A stretch of DNA of 64,000 bases, taken from positions 1 to 64,000 of the IMG/VR virus record IMGVR_UViG_3300049582_000032. One strand, written 5' to 3'. Of this stretch, positions 21,332 through 61,738 are shown piece after piece. The position numbers and the translations under genes are program-made. The stretch is from a virus. Each line of letters starts with the position of its first letter. Positions within the stretch are counted from its first letter, which is position 1. The notes under the pieces are model-generated. The model was not told the DNA's origin, ran no database searches, and was given only the letters and a program-made list of their open reading frames with translations.

Positions 21332-22935
21332 GCAACTTTCTTCCTGATTACGCCCTTTTTGAAGAGAAAACTCTTAAGATCGTTGTTGATTAGCTTCACG
21401 GTTGCGGCATCCGGCTTCTTCGATCGGATGTAATCAAGATATCCCCACACAACCTGAAATTCATTCGGTATCTTTTTATCACAAAACGCCTTCGTTCTCT
21501 GCTTCCAGTTCTCGTGTCCTTTTGATTTATGGTATCCGATGACCTGAGCATAGAGATCCATGGCCAGTTCCCTTGTCCATGTCACTTTGGCCATCTCGCG
21601 AGACGTTTCAGCCACCAACTGGACGGGTATTTCCTCCAGAACATGGATTCTTGGAGGCATCGCGGTCCCGCATTTCGGGCATTTTCGGGCAGAAACAGGA
21701 TATTCGGTGCCACAAACACACTTGTAAAGCGCTTCGGTAGCGACTGCGTCCTCTTCCTCCTTTGCTTTACGCAACCTCTTCAGCTTCTCGGTGGCGCTTT
21801 TCGGTGTTTCCTCCAGATCCCAATCCCAATCGCTATCCGGGTGCTTCAATTTCTCCACTGTTTTTGTGTAATCCAGGACTTTTACACACGTTTTGTCACC
21901 GGATGGCCGTCTTCCGCGTCCGATTGCCTGTAGATACGTGATCAGGTTCATGACCTGCTGCTTATTCGGCCTTGCCAAGGCTACGCACTCGATTTCAGGA
22001 ATGTCCACGCCCTCTACAGCAATGCCGAAGTTGCACAGAACCTTGATTTCGCCACTCGCAAGCCGTGCATAGATCCGGTCTCGCGGGGATACGCCATCTT
22101 CTCCTGGCTCGTCGGATATGTCAGAGTCGATATGCTCCGCTGGGATGCCCGCACGATTGAACTGCTCGCACAGATGGATTGAGTGGCCCACATTCTTGGC
22201 GAAAAAGACCGTCTTGAGGTCAAGGCAATGCTCCTGCCACTGCTCGACGACCCTCCCGATCAGCTTGGGCGTATCCGCCATATCGTCCGGAAGCACCAGA
22301 CCCCTGGAATTGACCACACTGGCCGGAAGCAGGATTCCCGCCTCGACCATCTCATTGATCGACGGACCCCTAACGAGCGCATCGTACTGGCTGCCAAGCC
22401 CATCTCCGTTTCCTTTGATGGGAGTTGCGGAATACCCAATGAAAACCGCCTTCGGGTAGACCGTTTTCAGCCAGTTGATATTGCCGATATGGCATTCATC
22501 CACATGCACAACGTCTGCGGGAGGAAGCGCAGCCTCCATCGGGTCCAGGCCGTATTGCAGGTCGAGTTCCTTGTGCGAATCGCTGTCGATCAGCCCCTTT
22601 GCCCTTTTGTACCGGAGCCACAGGGTCGCAGTACACGCAACCTGGACAGGAGAATTCCTGTCATACGGCATTCCGGCCATCATGTATGACGGGTTCAAGC
22701 CGTACCTGCTGAATGTATCGTACATCTGCTTGGTGATTCGCCGCCGTGGCGTGATGACAAGCACATGCCTTCCCTTCGAGACAGTCCCTTTTGCGAGACG
22801 TGCGCTGATGTGCGTCTTCCCAGCCCCTGTTGGAGCCTGCACGCAGATATTCCGGATACTCCGCTTTCCGAAATCATAGATCTGCTGGATGATATTGGTC
22901 TGAAACCGCTCCCTGTTTGCGTTGATCAGGTCCAT
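21328..22935 (-). CDS. Superfamily 2 (DExH) helicase with C-terminal zinc ribbon
   Basis: APTGAGKT, DECH, SAT, EGVDIP, QAIGRGRR, CVC...CPKCG; start at MDLIN via TGATG overlap. Confidence 0.9.
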   Translation of the reverse strand: MDLINANRERFQTNIIQQIYDFGKRSIRNICVQAPTGAGKTHISARLAKGTVSKGRHVLVITPRRRITKQMYDTFSRYGLNPSYMMAGMPYDRNSPVQVACTATLWLRYKRAKGLIDSDSHKELDLQYGLDPMEAALPPADVVHVDECHIGNINWLKTVYPKAVFIGYSATPIKGNGDGLGSQYDALVRGPSINEMVEAGILLPASVVNSRGLVLPDDMADTPKLIGRVVEQWQEHCLDLKTVFFAKNVGHSIHLCEQFNRAGIPAEHIDSDISDEPGEDGVSPRDRIYARLASGEIKVLCNFGIAVEGVDIPEIECVALARPNKQQVMNLITYLQAIGRGRRPSGDKTCVKVLDYTKTVEKLKHPDSDWDWDLEETPKSATEKLKRLRKAKEEEDAVATEALYKCVCGTEYPVSARKCPKCGTAMPPRIHVLEEIPVQLVAETSREMAKVTWTRELAMDLYAQVIGYHKSKGHENWKQRTKAFCDKKIPNEFQVVWGYLDYIRSKKPDAATVKLINNDLKSFLFKKGVIRKKVA

Positions 22936-23399
22936 CAGGGGACCTCGACAACCTGAACCGGGGGAATGGCGATGTATTGCACTGGACTTTTCGATAGCTC
23001 GCGTTTTATGACCTCTCTGACAATCCTCCATTCCAGCCCCCCAAGGCCGCATCCTACTGCTGGCAGCGCAACGGTTTCGATGCCTCGCGCATTGCACTCG
23101 TGGTTCATATCTTCAAGGGCAGGACGTATATCCACGAGCCTCGATTTCTGTCTCCAGTGATACTTGGTCGGGAATAGGATGATCTCTGGTGGAGATTCCA
23201 CACCGGATTTCACCACCCTGACGCGGCCAAGCATCATCTCGCCACGGTTACACAGCGCTTTGTATGACCAGAGCATATCAGGAAATCGTTCCTTGAACTC
23301 CAGCTCCAATCCATTCCCCATTACGCCTACACAATTGACGGGATTGACAAGGGCTTGGCAATCCATGGAGAAGATATTGCCATTGCGGACGGTGAGCAT
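22935..23399 (-). CDS. Macrodomain ADP-ribose glycohydrolase, DarG-like
   Basis: VNPVNCVGVMG.G, FPTK.HW, ALPAVGCGLGGL.W. Confidence 0.88.
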   Translation of the reverse strand: MLTVRNGNIFSMDCQALVNPVNCVGVMGNGLELEFKERFPDMLWSYKALCNRGEMMLGRVRVVKSGVESPPEIILFPTKYHWRQKSRLVDIRPALEDMNHECNARGIETVALPAVGCGLGGLEWRIVREVIKRELSKSPVQYIAIPPVQVVEVP

Positions 23400-23449
23400 C
23401 AGTCATCCTCCAGCTATTCGAGGGAAGACACTTTCCCACATCCGGCCCA

Positions 23450-23479
23450 ATATGTCAAGTCAAGAATTGTGTTGACATT
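23450..23479. promoter_or_regulatory. Back-to-back -35 divergent promoter element, copy 1
   Basis: ATATGTCAAGTCAAGAATTGTGTTGACATT between divergent genes; identical copy at 61709..61738. Confidence 0.75.
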
Positions 23480-26290: not shown

Positions 26291-26579
26291 CCCCAATGCG
26301 ATGCTCGTTCCGCTCAAGCCTGGCTTTCGCCGCCCACTTCATTGGAATAACCGCCAGCTTGACATCAACCCTTGGAGCCACCCTGTCCACAAGCCGATCC
26401 GCAAGATCATCATCAACATACATCACGGCATCCTTGAATGGACGGTCATCCGTGACTACGCCATCGTCATAGAACAAAGCCGCCGCATCCACGGCGTTAA
26501 CGATGCAGTAGCCCTCTTCCTTCCACTGAATGGCGCACTCGCACGCCGCGATGTCACTCTCGATATCCATCTCGTCCAT
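26283..26579 (-). CDS. Hypothetical protein
   Basis: GCTGGAGGA RBS 6 nt upstream. Confidence 0.6.
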   Translation of the reverse strand: MDEMDIESDIAACECAIQWKEEGYCIVNAVDAAALFYDDGVVTDDRPFKDAVMYVDDDLADRLVDRVAPRVDVKLAVIPMKWAAKARLERNEHRIGDA

Positions 26580-26684: not shown

Positions 26685-27062
26685 ATGATATTCATCTCCG
26701 GATCACAAACCATTACCGATCTGACCACCGGCTTCACGCAGCGGATCGATAACATCATCGCCAAAAACCTGCCCGTCATAACCGGCAACGTGGAGGGAGT
26801 GGAGGCGGCAGTGGTAGCCTATTTAAGTTCCAAAGGCTACAGGAATTACGTACAACGGCCCAACCAGGATTGCATAAACTCCGCGAGCTACGGGCTGTTC
26901 ATGTGGGACGGAACCAACGACAGAACCTTGAAAAACGTCATGCGCATGAAGGCCATGGGCAAACCGTCCGTGATCTATACGCCGTTCAACACAGAACTCG
27001 GCAGGCCGGACGAGCCGCTGAAAGAGGAAACATACGTGCTGGAGGGCGTATCAAATGCCTGA
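26685..27062 (+). CDS. SLOG/YspA-like nucleotide-binding protein
   Basis: IFISGS.TI, VITG...GVE..V..YL...GY, FMWDG pattern; TTGACT promoter upstream. Confidence 0.55.
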   Translation: MIFISGSQTITDLTTGFTQRIDNIIAKNLPVITGNVEGVEAAVVAYLSSKGYRNYVQRPNQDCINSASYGLFMWDGTNDRTLKNVMRMKAMGKPSVIYTPFNTELGRPDEPLKEETYVLEGVSNA

Positions 27063-27285
27063 CTTTGAACATCTCGACCATGTTTTCGTGAATGAAGGCC
27101 AAGGCGAACGCTACGGCAGAATTGTCAAGAAACTCAACGCAGGATCTTATATCGTGGAGTTCATGGACAACAAAACACGAGGAACATTCGAGGCGGATCG
27201 TATCAGGCTGGCTAGCTGCGAGGAACAGATCAAGCTTGGATACTCAAGATATGATGAGGAGACGGTGACTGATCCAGAGTTCCTT

Positions 27286-28569
27286 GTGAACTACCCCTGC
27301 CTAAAGGCAGAGGCTTCTAGCTTCTCAGGCAATTGCGATTCACTTGGCTTGCGCCCCGCGGATCGTCTGACATTGCCTCCACTAGCAGTAGCGGGCGCTC
27401 CACCCGCCAAAATCCTTAACCCTTCATCACGTATATTGATGGCCGCGTTAACATCCCTATCATGGTGCGTTCCACAATGGCCACACTGCCAAGCGCGAAC
27501 CTTAAGCGGGATCTTATCATGAACGCTGCCACATACGTTACAAGTCTTTGTGCTCGGGAACCACCTATCGCATTTAACGAAAGCCTTTCCTGCACGCTCC
27601 GACTTGTATTCCAGGAAACGTGTGAGCATTCCCCACCCTACATCCGAAACAGCTTTCGCAAGATTGTGATTCTTCAGCACGCCTTTAACGTTTAGATCTT
27701 CGACGCATATGACTTGGTTTTCGTCAATCAGGCGTCGTGACAGTTTATGTAGATAGTCCTTGCGAGCACATGCGACCCTCTCATACGCCCTCGCAACAAG
27801 CCGCCGTGCCTTATTTCTTCCAGCGGACCCTTTCTTTCTGCGAGATAGCTTGCGCTGCTTCCTCTTAAGATTCCTTTCAGCTTTCCGAATATGTCTCGGA
27901 TTATCGAATTTAGACCCGTCGCTTGTGACGGCCAAATGAGTCAACCCAACGTCAATGCCAATCGCCTTGCCATCGCTGGAAATTGCAGGCAGTTCAACGC
28001 CATCATCCGTCAAGATAGAAGCATGGTATCGCCCGGCAGGATTCATGCTAACGGTAACGGTCTTAATGCGCCCGAATAGCTCTCTATGGACAACGCACCG
28101 AACCCACCCGACTTTTGGCAAATAGATTCGGCTGCCGTTAACCTTAACCCTCTGCGGGTATTGTATAGACTGCCTGCCATGTTTCGATTTGAAACGAGGA
28201 TAGCGCCCACGCTTCTGAAAGAAGTTCTCATATGCGCGAGAAAGGTTCTGTAATGATTGCTGCAACGCTTGTGAGTCTGCATCGCGCAACCATTTAAATT
28301 CTGCCTTCAACTTTGGCAGACGGATTGCCATTGCATGGTAGTTCAAGCCCTTGCCGGTTTCTCTATACAATGCGCCACTTGTCGCGAGGGCTTCATTCCA
28401 GACCCATCTAACGCAACCGAATTGCATCGTCAGAGCCTTAGTCTGATCTATTGTCGGATACATACGAATTTTGGTTGCCGTAAGCATTGTTTAGGTATAC
28501 AATGCTCTCGTCTAAATGTCAAGGGCCTTATATCCCCTGCCTAAAGACAAGGGTTTTACGGCCCATTAG
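27286..28569 (-). mobile_element. IS200/IS605-family tnpB-only (IS1341-like) element
   Basis: Related subterminal hairpins CCCCTGCCTAAAG(G/A)CA.(A/G)GG at both ends; right end TCAC; TTAT target motif outside left end; no target duplication. Confidence 0.88.
27291..28487 (-). CDS. tnpB: RNA-guided endonuclease TnpB
   Basis: HTH_OrfB N-terminus; RuvC GIDVG, VEDL, DRDVNAA.NI; CxxC zinc ribbon. Confidence 0.95.
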   Translation of the reverse strand: MLTATKIRMYPTIDQTKALTMQFGCVRWVWNEALATSGALYRETGKGLNYHAMAIRLPKLKAEFKWLRDADSQALQQSLQNLSRAYENFFQKRGRYPRFKSKHGRQSIQYPQRVKVNGSRIYLPKVGWVRCVVHRELFGRIKTVTVSMNPAGRYHASILTDDGVELPAISSDGKAIGIDVGLTHLAVTSDGSKFDNPRHIRKAERNLKRKQRKLSRRKKGSAGRNKARRLVARAYERVACARKDYLHKLSRRLIDENQVICVEDLNVKGVLKNHNLAKAVSDVGWGMLTRFLEYKSERAGKAFVKCDRWFPSTKTCNVCGSVHDKIPLKVRAWQCGHCGTHHDRDVNAAINIRDEGLRILAGGAPATASGGNVRRSAGRKPSESQLPEKLEASAFRQG

Positions 28570-30028: not shown

Positions 30029-30091
30029 CGGTTCCTCCATCAACCAACCTTCAATAATCCTACTCCCCCACCAGGGAACCGTCAACACTTT

Positions 30092-35542: not shown

Positions 35543-36667
35543 CTACTCGACAAATGAAACGCGCATCGGCGCAATCGACGCATGGAACTCACGATCCAAC
35601 TGGCCACGAATACGAATTGGCTTCACTCCATCCCCGAAATCAATCATGACCTCCCTTGTCAATGCGGGCAGCATATACTTCGGATTGAACGCAAGCGGAC
35701 CAACCGTACCTCCACCCGTATCGGCATCGAAGAACGAACTTGCGGAGCCTTTATCAACGCTCTGCGAGAACGCCTCCAAGCCATCCTCGCCGGCAACGGA
35801 ACACACCCCGACATATCCGCTCGACTGCGGAAGACAAAGCTCGATTGCGTAAGCAAACTGCTGATAGTCTACACTGATGCCGGAATCTCCATCACCAAGC
35901 ACCTCCTCATAATTAACATACCCAGCTTCCACCAACGCAGTGACAAAGCACCCGTCTGGAGAAACAAGTATGAACTTTGTTTCGTCGATATAAATGCTCA
36001 CCGGGAACATTGAGCCTACCGTTTCCAGGAACGCAAGCATGTGGTTGATCGAACTTGCGGGAATCGTAAGGCCATGTGGAATGTCCAGGAAGTCAGGCCG
36101 AGAAACGGCATACCGGCCAAGTGCGCTTCCATTGGTCGCAACGGAGATCAGCTTATCGCCATTCGTATGCAGATAGACGCCCTTGATGTGAAACCTCGGG
36201 TCATCCGTCTTCGTCAGCATGAAATCCTTGACGTTCACGATCAGGGACTGCAAGTCACCAGCCTTCATCTGTGGCAGAGAACCATGCACTTCCGGGAATG
36301 GCATGTGCCCGGCTGTATTCTCGTCCATCGACTTCAAGACGAACCTTGACGCGCCCTCCACGGCCAAGCCTGTTGCAGTCAGCTTGAACGACAGTTTCTC
36401 TCCAAGCGACTTGTTCTTGACAATCCCGACTAGCTGTTTTGCATCCAGATAAACAGGCCCTCCATCCTCCGGTTCATCCGCATAAACGCTATGGCGAACC
36501 GCGCAGCCGTTGCCAGGAACAGACATATGGAGTCTGCCCTCGGAAACACTCAAGGAAAGCACCGATTTTACAACATGGCCATTGTCCATTACCCATGCAT
36601 TTCGCTCAATCTTACTTAAATCCTTGAGCAGGGCGTGGAAATTTGCCCTCGCAACCTTGAATTTCAT
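35543..36667 (-). CDS. dnaN: DNA polymerase III beta clamp-like protein
   Basis: 374 aa; MKFKV.R..F..LL, RFHIKGVYL, VATNG..L, YVNYE.V, AFNPKY, IAPMR. Confidence 0.8.
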   Translation of the reverse strand: MKFKVARANFHALLKDLSKIERNAWVMDNGHVVKSVLSLSVSEGRLHMSVPGNGCAVRHSVYADEPEDGGPVYLDAKQLVGIVKNKSLGEKLSFKLTATGLAVEGASRFVLKSMDENTAGHMPFPEVHGSLPQMKAGDLQSLIVNVKDFMLTKTDDPRFHIKGVYLHTNGDKLISVATNGSALGRYAVSRPDFLDIPHGLTIPASSINHMLAFLETVGSMFPVSIYIDETKFILVSPDGCFVTALVEAGYVNYEEVLGDGDSGISVDYQQFAYAIELCLPQSSGYVGVCSVAGEDGLEAFSQSVDKGSASSFFDADTGGGTVGPLAFNPKYMLPALTREVMIDFGDGVKPIRIRGQLDREFHASIAPMRVSFVE

Positions 36668-36724
36668 AGAAGTTCTCCAGCAGTTGAAGACCCATCCTAC
36701 CGTAATTGGATCAGCCTTGTCAAG

Positions 36725-41145: not shown

Positions 41146-41218
41146 TGGAAACCCATTGACAATCTGAACTAATTGCTATATATACACGGTTATCATTCAA
41201 AACACAAGGAGAAACACC

Positions 41219-41653
41219 ATGCCGAAAGGCAAAAGCAACGAAGATCGTGAGACGATGAGTGGAAATCTGTTCATCGTAGAGATGGCTGAAGATAGCGCAA
41301 ACGTAACGCGCCTCCCAATCAACGTGAAGCTGGAGACAAACACGGTTGAGGTCAATAGCGGGGATGTCATCTACCCCAAGCGCGACCACGCCGTTCGGGC
41401 GATTGTTGAGGTCATTACGGATGATCTCGGCAGCACGTATTCCACTGACGGTCTTTCAAAGGGTGCCGCCAAGGCCGTTGCAAAGCACGTCGAAGGACTG
41501 CGCAAGAAGGTCGCTCAGGCCGTGCGGGCTCAGATCACGAAAGCAGGTGCGGGGCAGACTGTTTCCATCTCCCTTGATCCCGCCGAATACGATATCGAGG
41601 ACGATAGCGAGGACGAAGACCTGCCGGAAGATCAATTCCAAGCGGCAGAGTAA
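41219..41653 (+). CDS. Hypothetical protein with acidic tail
   Basis: TTGACA-N17-TATATA promoter, AAGGAG RBS. Confidence 0.75.
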   Translation: MPKGKSNEDRETMSGNLFIVEMAEDSANVTRLPINVKLETNTVEVNSGDVIYPKRDHAVRAIVEVITDDLGSTYSTDGLSKGAAKAVAKHVEGLRKKVAQAVRAQITKAGAGQTVSISLDPAEYDIEDDSEDEDLPEDQFQAAE

Positions 41654-41704
41654 CACTGCAAGATAAGGCTTGACTTTGCCGAAAGCAGCCTTATCATTCT
41701 ACCT

Positions 41705-41826
41705 TAGAGCAAGGGGAGTGTAGCTGCTTTAGTGGTTCTCCAGCACTTCTAAAAGCCTCAGGCTCCTCCCGGCTCTTTGAAACCCCTGGCAGCCAGCCCC
41801 CCTCTGGCTCCAGGGGTTTCGCCTTT
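41705..41826 (+). ncRNA. Candidate phage sRNA with anti-RBS loop (GUUCUCCAG) and C-rich terminal hairpin
   Basis: TTGACT-N16-TATCAT at 41670-41697; long hairpin AGAGC..GGGAG..GCTTT-AGTG[GTTCTCCAG]CACT..AAAGC..CTCCC..GCTCT; then GAAACCCCTGG...CCAGGGGTTTC; no ORF. Confidence 0.65.
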
Positions 41827-42018
41827 CTAGCCTACAGCATCCGGATTATCATGGAACTTACGGAATAGCTGGTCCCACTGGCTTGCGCGAATCATGCGTG
41901 GAAGCTTCGGGTCTTTCTCGGATTGAAGCCTGATATACTGTTGAAACGCACAGAGAATTTCCATCTCCTGAGCCGCGAATTCCTCTATCGTGAGTTCAGG
42001 ATCTTTGTCTTCTTCCAA
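41827..42018 (-). CDS. Small hypothetical protein
   Basis: AAGGAG RBS; resembles 43700..43885. Confidence 0.6.
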   Translation of the reverse strand: MEEDKDPELTIEEFAAQEMEILCAFQQYIRLQSEKDPKLPRMIRASQWDQLFRKFHDNPDAVG

Positions 42019-42029
42019 GGTGATCTCCT

Positions 42030-42578
42030 TCAGGCTATCAGTGGCTCATACGTGACAATCGAATCTATCACACCATCACTATAGTAATCTCTAACTTCCT
42101 TCACCAGGAACCCGTCTGGCGCATACTCGAACGTGATTGTATCCATCCCGCCAAAGCCGATTGCGACAAAGTTCTGGAAACTCTGCACCCGCTGCGTAAC
42201 CTGCCCGAGATCGTTGACGGCTTGCGTCATTTCGTATGTGTATTCAGGCTCAGGATCAGTATCGTACTGGTACTTCCAAAACTCATGGGATAGAACGCCA
42301 TTCGTGTATTCGTAATCGGCGGTTGCGTGATAAATCCATCCATCCGCGCCCGCCTTCTCACGAAACACGTCCTGGAATTCGATCTTCCCATCATCCGTGT
42401 ACGAATACTCTTCCCGATAGACTTCCTCGAAGGAGCCATCCCCGTCTCTGTCGTACAGATCAGACTGGTAGGTCAGATCGTCGCCGCCGTCGAGAAAACG
42501 CTTCTCGGATACGGAAGTTGATTTCAGGGTTCCATCGGGATTAAGGTTGGTCCAGGTCTCCTTGTAATCCTGCGGCAT
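42030..42578 (-). CDS. Acidic beta-hairpin repeat protein with DxDGDG motifs (YD-like)
   Basis: DRDGDGSFE, YSYTDDG, DYYSDGVID. Confidence 0.75.
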   Translation of the reverse strand: MPQDYKETWTNLNPDGTLKSTSVSEKRFLDGGDDLTYQSDLYDRDGDGSFEEVYREEYSYTDDGKIEFQDVFREKAGADGWIYHATADYEYTNGVLSHEFWKYQYDTDPEPEYTYEMTQAVNDLGQVTQRVQSFQNFVAIGFGGMDTITFEYAPDGFLVKEVRDYYSDGVIDSIVTYEPLIA

Positions 42579-43885: not shown

Positions 43886-43953
43886 TACTTAACTCCATCG
43901 TCTCTCTCCAGCATTTCGTTATAGCAGCAAGTATATCATAACAAGCTATGTTG

Positions 43954-61012: not shown

Positions 61013-61139
61013 AGAGGCCAAACATAATCTAAAAAATCCCCCCTTGGTCCATACCTTGGGGGGAAATCCTCGCATATGACGCGAGGTAGGCGGGGCGGGT
61101 CGCTGAAGCAATAACGATACCGCCTCGCATTCGCCCCTG

Positions 61140-61652
61140 TCAAGCAAGATTTTCGTCGGTAGCGCGCTTGCGTTTGGCGCTAGCCTGTTTCTTCTCTTCA
61201 AGACGCCTGTACGCTTCCTTGGCCTCATCCCAATTCTCCGGTAGAGGAACACCCATGTCGGTTGCAGCCTTCTCCAGTGCAGGCACATGGCTTGGCATAA
61301 TCCTTACTGATCTCTTGGACATGCTCTTGAGCGATGCGATAGGGATACCGGAAGCCTCATGAAGCTCCTGCCAGCCTCCATATGTTCGCGCCAAGGCCGT
61401 GATGAACCGATTGAGCGCTGTCGCCCCCAGCCTCTGGTAAAGCTGCTTGGAAGTGAGCACTTCTTCCGGGACATCCGTTACACCCTTGTCGTTCGCCAGG
61501 GCAATGAGACCTGCCTTGTATCGTTCAAAGAAACCGTTCCTGATCTGGTTTGAAATGTTCGTATGTCCGGACTTGCCAAGCGCCTTGGCGACGGCTACAG
61601 AACCGCCCAGGTCCGTGATGAACTTCTTCCTTTGTAACTGCTCGTGATCCAC
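61140..61652 (-). CDS. Tandem Cro/HTH-like regulator
   Basis: Two FIT.L...GG...(VAKALG/LHEASG) units; divergent from the erf operon. Confidence 0.65.
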   Translation of the reverse strand: MDHEQLQRKKFITDLGGSVAVAKALGKSGHTNISNQIRNGFFERYKAGLIALANDKGVTDVPEEVLTSKQLYQRLGATALNRFITALARTYGGWQELHEASGIPIASLKSMSKRSVRIMPSHVPALEKAATDMGVPLPENWDEAKEAYRRLEEKKQASAKRKRATDENLA

Positions 61653-61708
61653 TTCTTGATCTCTCCCTCATGCATGAGTTGTCCGATCCTCGCTCTATAC
61701 ACCATCCC

Positions 61709-61738
61709 ATATGTCAAGTCAAGAATTGTGTTGACATT
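61709..61738. promoter_or_regulatory. Back-to-back -35 divergent promoter element, copy 2
   Basis: Identical to 23450..23479; minus-strand TTGACT-N17-TATAGA. Confidence 0.75.

Follow-up and report, generated by a model that had tools for sequence, protein, structure and literature searches.

The 173-bp gap between two converging genes (positions 41654-41826) in the genome of an uncultured phage contains a candidate non-coding transcription unit on the plus strand. From its host-type promoter, an RNA of about 120-125 nt would start near position 41704 (an inferred start site), form a weak 5' stem-loop, and end at a terminator hairpin followed by a U-rich tail. The unit is supported in silico by the fit of its promoter to a phage promoter family, by the terminator, by the absence of an ORF, by the accessibility of one C/U-rich segment, and by the complementarity of this segment to a ribosome-binding motif of the phage, together with the ranking of the genes that carry this motif among the predicted targets. 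On these sequence grounds, a discrete RNA, or a 3'UTR carrying the segment, is probably made. As the best explanation of its features, we tentatively propose that this RNA may repress the GCUGGAG-tagged genes of the phage by pairing with their ribosome-binding sites (RBS).

The phage genome and the gap at 41654-41826

The window analysed is the first 64 kb (64,000 nucleotides) of a single 101,660-bp genome, a metagenomic viral contig deposited as an IMG/VR virus record (linear, about 90% complete). The phage has genes for portal/adaptor, ribonucleotide reductase, helicase, thymidylate synthase, endolysin, tail fibre and sliding clamp, and a search for tRNA and tmRNA genes found none. The nearest isolated phages, whose hosts are mostly Alphaproteobacteria, have portal proteins of at most 33% identity. 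The relatives retrieved by portal alignment in IMG/VR reach only 34-36% identity, and the GCTGGAG RBS motif is absent in these. Closer relatives exist as protein records, namely a 95%-identical clamp encoded on a 21-kb contig, and portals 75% (51-kb contig) and 58% (76-kb contig) identical. The genome also encodes on the minus strand (27291-28487) a 398-aa protein with a strong match to a PHROG transposase (phrog_506, E 9e-131), which overlaps an opposite-strand ORF (27055-27522) with a GCTGGAG RBS, and which may represent the insertion of a mobile element into a phage gene.

A locus homologous to the gap was sought in phage, plasmid, IMG/VR, metagenome and genome collections, and none was found. 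Blastn searches against phages and against plasmids returned no match, and the proteins flanking the gap, like the clamp, had no relatives in IMG/VR. A pattern search of IMG/VR with the 17-mer loop and the H3 arm (see below) gave chance matches only, with dissimilar flanks. The clamp retrieved a single unrelated 27% match (L005), with zero genes in common with the phage, from the metagenome collection, and no match from the collection of genome contigs. Nor is there a paralogous copy of the gap elsewhere in the genome. An Rfam search, which the initial annotation had suggested as a check, matched no family to the candidate RNA: over the whole window no family reached its gathering threshold, and for 41600-41900, with E values up to 10, four noise-level matches to unrelated families were all that appeared.

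The gap is preceded on the plus strand by a gene for a 144-aa protein with an acidic C-terminus (41219-41653), which has a canonical AAGGAG-type RBS and its own TTGACA-type promoter; no family was found for this protein, and no relatives in IMG/VR. The promoter-like site, read from the sequence at 41156-41184 (TTGACA, then a TATATA-type -10), indicates that plus-strand transcription should enter the region. On the other side, a minus-strand operon, which includes the repeat protein 42030-42578, ends with a 63-aa ORF (41827-42018; TTG start after AAGGAG) whose stop lies 6 nt from the terminal hairpin of the gap. Seven of the 12 converging junctions of the genome measure 25 bp or less, as against the 173 bp found here. 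The initial annotation had located the features of the gap correctly, but had overlooked this converging-gene setting.

As had been claimed, the interval is free of ORFs: none of 20 aa or more is present within 41698-41826 on either strand. A coding role for this interval was rejected on that account, the sole mini-frame being of six codons and poorly spaced.

Three consecutive hairpins, H1, H2 and H3, occupy the gap. H1 (41662-41695, plus strand) starts 9 nt past the stop of the upstream gene, and is a near-perfect stem of about 14 bp closed by a tetraloop; its energy is -15.8 kcal/mol (z -3.41), and 0 of 200 shuffled sequences folded as well. This hairpin, missed in the initial annotation, overlaps both the -35 and the -10 of the candidate promoter, and the promoter match could therefore be incidental.

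The second hairpin is the imperfect H2 (41706-41776, plus strand), the minimum-energy fold, whose top stem-loop (41726-41756) holds the loop discussed below. A hairpin of about 70 nt had been reported at this position and is indeed predicted there, but its stability is not beyond chance (z -0.92, with 39 of 200 shuffles as good), and the top stem-loop taken separately gives the same picture (-5.9 kcal/mol, z -0.54, 57 of 200 shuffles as good). The octamer CTCCTCCC, likewise reported at 41763-41770, is present but not exposed, since CUCCUCCC pairs with GGGGAG at 41714-41719 in the stem of H2.

The terminal hairpin, H3 (41778-41821, plus strand; arms 41779-41789 and 41810-41820), is as strong as the initial annotation had claimed: at -31.5 kcal/mol (z -6.64), it is the most stable fold among all 50-nt windows of the genome. 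Its U-rich tail (41822-41830) is interrupted and is found on the plus strand only, so that H3, by its polarity, would terminate plus-strand transcripts. A second CUCCAG is located in the 3' arm of H3 (41809-41814), where it is base-paired; it may be due to chance.

The promoter of the candidate RNA

The sigma-70-type promoter previously assigned to 41670-41697 (plus strand) was recovered, with TTGACT at 41670-41675, a 16-nt spacer and TATCAT at 41692-41697. It matches the consensus at 10 of 12 positions and fits a promoter family of the phage. The family comprises about 20 copies, nearly all of them intergenic and directed towards a gene, in which a common upstream context (an A-rich stretch ending in GAG, GAC or GTG) precedes TTGACA, a spacer of about 17 nt and TAnnnT; examples in the window are found at 30085, 31750, 32773, 33483, 36723, 43957, 44921, 51568, 52228, 56804, 60191 and 61731. 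The existence of this family suggests that the non-structural region is transcribed by the host RNA polymerase.

Genome-wide, 21 sites match sigma-70 at 10 of 12 positions, compared with 10.7 +/- 3.6 expected from Markov controls. Fifteen of these 21 fall in the non-coding DNA, which makes up about 22% of the genome (a share that rests on crude gene calls), and almost all point at a gene. When a matrix built from the other promoters of the phage was used for scoring, the -35 and upstream context of the candidate ranked 29 of 203,276 genome positions. With the -10 and the spacer added, its full score was 16.6 (rank 21 genome-wide), a value inside the leave-one-out range of the training promoters (5.9-27.3). 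Among the sites at ranks 21-31 of the full score, 9 of 11 are intergenic, against the roughly 22% of the genome that is non-coding. From its sequence and score, we regard the candidate promoter with good confidence as real. No plus-strand gene lies downstream of it; if active, it would give rise either to a short RNA with its end at H3 or to transcripts that run on past H3 into the converging operon, in antisense orientation.

In silico, then, the unit agrees with the working definition of a trans-acting sRNA gene, in that it is ORF-free and has both its own promoter and a same-strand intrinsic terminator. It also has the arrangement of a 3'UTR-embedded sRNA, with a same-strand gene upstream, H3 as the common terminator, and a separate promoter. 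Because no U-tailed terminator is present between gene 41219-41653 and H3, transcripts of that gene probably also contain the sequence of the unit, as their 3'UTR.

Other parts of the genome show related arrangements. A second orphan unit was noticed on the minus strand at 61031-61143, in a 135-bp converging gap. The promoter is of the family type, with TTGACA and TATCGT 18 nt apart, ranks 22nd by promoter score and extends over the stop codon of gene 61140-61652; it is followed by a small hairpin and by a canonical terminator with a six-U run. The RNA would be about 78 nt long, and it has no complementarity to start regions. A 33-nt block, repeated with 97% identity at 23447-23479 and 61706-61738, lies in divergent promoter regions with back-to-back TTGAC elements, and resembles a bidirectional promoter or operator cassette that has been duplicated. 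Beyond the window, a plus-strand promoter-like site at 91242 (rank 26 on the promoter score), which no plus-strand gene follows, lies in a gap of 400 bp (91095-91494) within the structural module, on whose minus strand the genes are encoded.

The GCTGGAG motif and its complement in the loop

The heptamer GCTGGAG occurs 34 times in the window, where 10.8 +/- 3.1 copies are expected, and 48 times in the whole genome. It outnumbers every other heptamer in the 22-nt stretches that precede the 119 predicted starts (15 of 119), and GCT is the commonest prefix among RBS of the GGAG type (14 of 72, a 3.6-fold enrichment). The initial annotation had counted it as the RBS of at least 14 ORFs, which is about right: 13 copies are followed by ATG 6-10 nt downstream and by an ORF of at least 50 aa, and three more are marginal. 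The best predicted target is the RBS of the beta-clamp gene (35543-36667, minus strand), located at 36675-36681 on the same strand, with the -10 of a phage promoter 12 nt upstream. The others, assigned on the basis of spacing and ORF length and spanning 23408-57273, are on the minus strand at 23408, 26586, 31012, 31254, 31692, 32187, 32714, 43590, 43906 and 44870, and on the plus strand at 27038, 51614 and 57267.

Besides the clamp, the genes with this RBS include those for a Macro-domain protein, an SLT transglycosylase and a repeat protein, and several small ORFs without assigned function. The Macro-domain protein (22935-23399, minus strand; PF01661, E 1.7e-16) may, judging from its domain, process ADP-ribose as an enzyme and possibly act in counter-defence.

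For eight of the sixteen GCTGGAG copies assigned as RBS, the -10 of a family promoter is found 12-24 nt upstream, which places the motif no more than a few bases from where the mRNA would begin. The spacing of the motif to the start codon is tight, while that to the -10 is variable, which argues for a translational rather than a DNA-level signal. The conserved 3' end of 16S rRNA offers no pairing partner for the GCU prefix, and some other reader of the motif is therefore plausible. Homologues of the proteins RegB, CsrA and Hfq were sought in the genome as possible readers and none was found, which leaves room for an unfamiliar protein.

The top of H2 reads AGTG, GTTCTCCAG, CACT (41731-41747). 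Within it, the segment GUUCUCCAGCA (41735-41745, plus strand) is complementary to GCUGGAG(A/G)(A/G), with the exact complement of GCTGGAG at 41738-41744. The exposure of this segment in the loop, as proposed in the initial annotation, is borne out by the folding model, in which positions 41737-41744 are predicted to be unpaired (p 0.70-1.0) at an opening cost of 0.35 kcal/mol. No other stretch of the gap has a complement that is found repeatedly in start regions (peak 15 for this segment), and the complement of GCTGGAG occurs just once in truly intergenic, non-RBS DNA, in this gap. As previously noted, the minus-strand copy of the motif is not itself an RBS, as no start codon follows it at a distance of 3-13 nt. 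The possibility that it marks the start of a decayed gene on the minus strand was rejected, since neither a start codon nor, upstream on that strand, a family-type promoter is present.

Pairing of the loop with the 119 translation start regions was estimated with a loop-restricted, accessibility-corrected method. The GCUGGAG genes ranked first and held most of the best energies, in agreement with what the initial annotation would predict, and the 11-nt perfect complementarity that it had described for the beta-clamp RBS was confirmed on the sequence. The estimated energies were -14.1 kcal/mol for the clamp, -13.7 for the gene at 26579 and -11.1 for the mini-ORF at 43898, these being the only three targets at -11 kcal/mol or better; the next five GCUGGAG genes ranged from -9.5 to -7.7 kcal/mol, and the median of the 119 regions was 0. 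It should be considered that predicted sRNA-target pairs are often wrong. The complementary core measures only 7-9 nt and contains the generic GGAG, and the flanks of the 9-nt core show no further complementarity common to the targets. The chance of finding CTCCAGC in a 123-nt RNA is 2.7% at the genome's own frequency, and higher for looser matches.

Proposed regulation, alternatives and known systems

The mechanism we propose is that single-stranded UUCUCCAGC would pair with the GCUGGAG(A/G)(A/G) RBS of some 13-16 non-structural genes. Many of these sites are in short leaders, only a few bases away from the 5' end. Pairing would keep the 30S subunit from binding, and the translation of the tagged genes would be lowered together. 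From the features of the unit we infer production of the RNA, its pairing in vivo, and repression as the direction of the effect; any role in timing, such as an early-to-late switch or the maintenance of latency, would be pure conjecture. As to the regulatory reading given in the initial annotation, the promoter, the plus-strand terminator, the accessibility of the segment and the ranking of the pairing all held up, but the hairpin that presents the segment proved unremarkable. The fuller form of the proposal, in which the loop of one phage sRNA reads a 'private' Shine-Dalgarno (SD) extension, GCUGGAG-purine-purine, on about 13-16 early, promoter-proximal genes and switches down their translation, is somewhat unlikely.

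The gap might instead be a plain terminator region, in which H3, and perhaps H1, would end or stabilise both transcription units, whereas the promoter, H2 and the anti-motif would be there by chance and no discrete RNA would be made. This would suit the converging genes and the position of H3, 6 nt from the minus-strand ORF stop, as well as an H2 that is indistinguishable from shuffled sequences; about 10.7 promoter-like 10/12 matches are in any case expected genome-wide by chance, and, because H1 is a true palindrome extending over both hexamers, the hexamers could be by-products of H1. However, two independent coincidences would then have to fall in one 173-bp gap: the Markov expectation of finding a 10/12 promoter in the family context is about 2% over such a length, and the chance of the anti-motif is about 3%. 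Moreover, matches at the promoter score of the candidate are still overwhelmingly intergenic, and a terminator needs only about 50 bp, most converging junctions here being of 25 bp or less. Since two coincidences would be needed and 173 bp would be left unexplained, a real unit is favoured, and we consider a plain terminator region unlikely.

If the unit is real, its job might be a different one. An sRNA or 3'UTR element could target host mRNAs, stabilise the upstream mRNA, or shield the converging minus-strand operon from plus-strand transcription, all of which are possible, and its match to the RBS motif would then be coincidental. The promoter and the terminator support such an RNA to the same extent as they support the repressor, while the anti-motif is short (chance about 3% or more) and the hairpin presenting it is weak. 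In addition, according to a review on the subject, the phage sRNAs that have been characterised mostly have host targets, or else regulate one or a few genes of the phage (PMC12197685). What such an RNA would leave unexplained is the exact match of the GCU extension to the sole accessible C/U-rich segment, and the location of this segment in the only clear orphan unit of the region; another job for the RNA therefore appears somewhat unlikely. Far less credible is a function for the minus-strand copy, in which transcripts reading through from the operon would expose GCUGGAGAAC in the loop of a hairpin and so act as decoys for a protein or nuclease recognising the motif. Read-through is plausible, because H3 has no U-tail on the minus strand, and the minus-strand fold also puts the motif, with no start codon behind it, in a loop. 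Nevertheless, the minus-strand fold of the gap is not unusual (z -1.9), the search for proteins like RegB, CsrA or Hfq in the genome gave none, and a single copy is present here, while known decoy RNAs carry many sites; we regard the decoy as very improbable.

Repression by RBS pairing, the reading we favour, has precedents outside phages. AbcR and cuckoo RNAs in Alphaproteobacteria, and RsaE/RoxS in Firmicutes, pair through a short exposed C/U-rich segment with the SD sequences of many mRNAs, and the candidate would likewise direct an exposed C/U-rich segment against many RBS. However, those RNAs are chromosomal and recognise the generic G-rich SD of host mRNAs, whereas the candidate is phage-encoded and its pairing would reach the non-SD prefix GCU, which marks a subset of phage genes. 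Nor does it have the family model and the loop-exposed CUCCCA or CCUCCUCCC that define AbcR and cuckoo: no Rfam family was matched, and the cuckoo-like CUCCUCCC is buried in a stem. In its location, directly downstream of a same-strand gene, with a common terminator and a separate promoter by the stop codon, the candidate resembles sRNAs of the DapZ/MicL type, but the promoters of the latter are usually inside the coding sequence rather than beside the stop codon.

The timing of gene expression in large phages is generally attributed to promoters, to sigma-factor takeover and to proteins. Among the latter, RegB and RegA of T4 recognise the translation start regions of early genes, which are shut down together. 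The likeness to the candidate is conceptual, in that one factor would act on a recognisable sequence in the start regions of early genes, with the difference that the reader would be an RNA.

The closest phage parallels are c4 of P1/P7 and CI of P4, which are phage-encoded and regulate mRNAs of the same phage in trans through short complementary segments thought to be in loops; those of c4 cover a ribosome-binding site (PMC12197685). The candidate is also phage-encoded and would act in trans on mRNAs of its own phage, but the sites addressed by c4 and CI number one or two and belong to one operon, from whose transcript these RNAs are themselves processed, whereas the candidate would address about 13-16 dispersed genes. 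It has no Rfam match to the C4/CI family, and its complementary sites are spread over 23-57 kb and over both strands. The same 2025 review reports the action of P1 c4 on the ant RBS and several phage sRNAs directed at host targets, and the text available describes no phage RNA that reads a motif common to many phage RBS (PMC12197685).

If the proposal is false, the gap is just a terminator region of the usual kind, and a different explanation has to be found for the GCTGGAG motif in the RBS. If it is true, the candidate would represent anti-SD regulation by sRNA in an altered form, in which an RNA recognises a shared RBS tag, not complementary to rRNA, of a class of genes. A post-transcriptional regulon built in this manner would be new, and it would account for an RBS variant that is otherwise puzzling.
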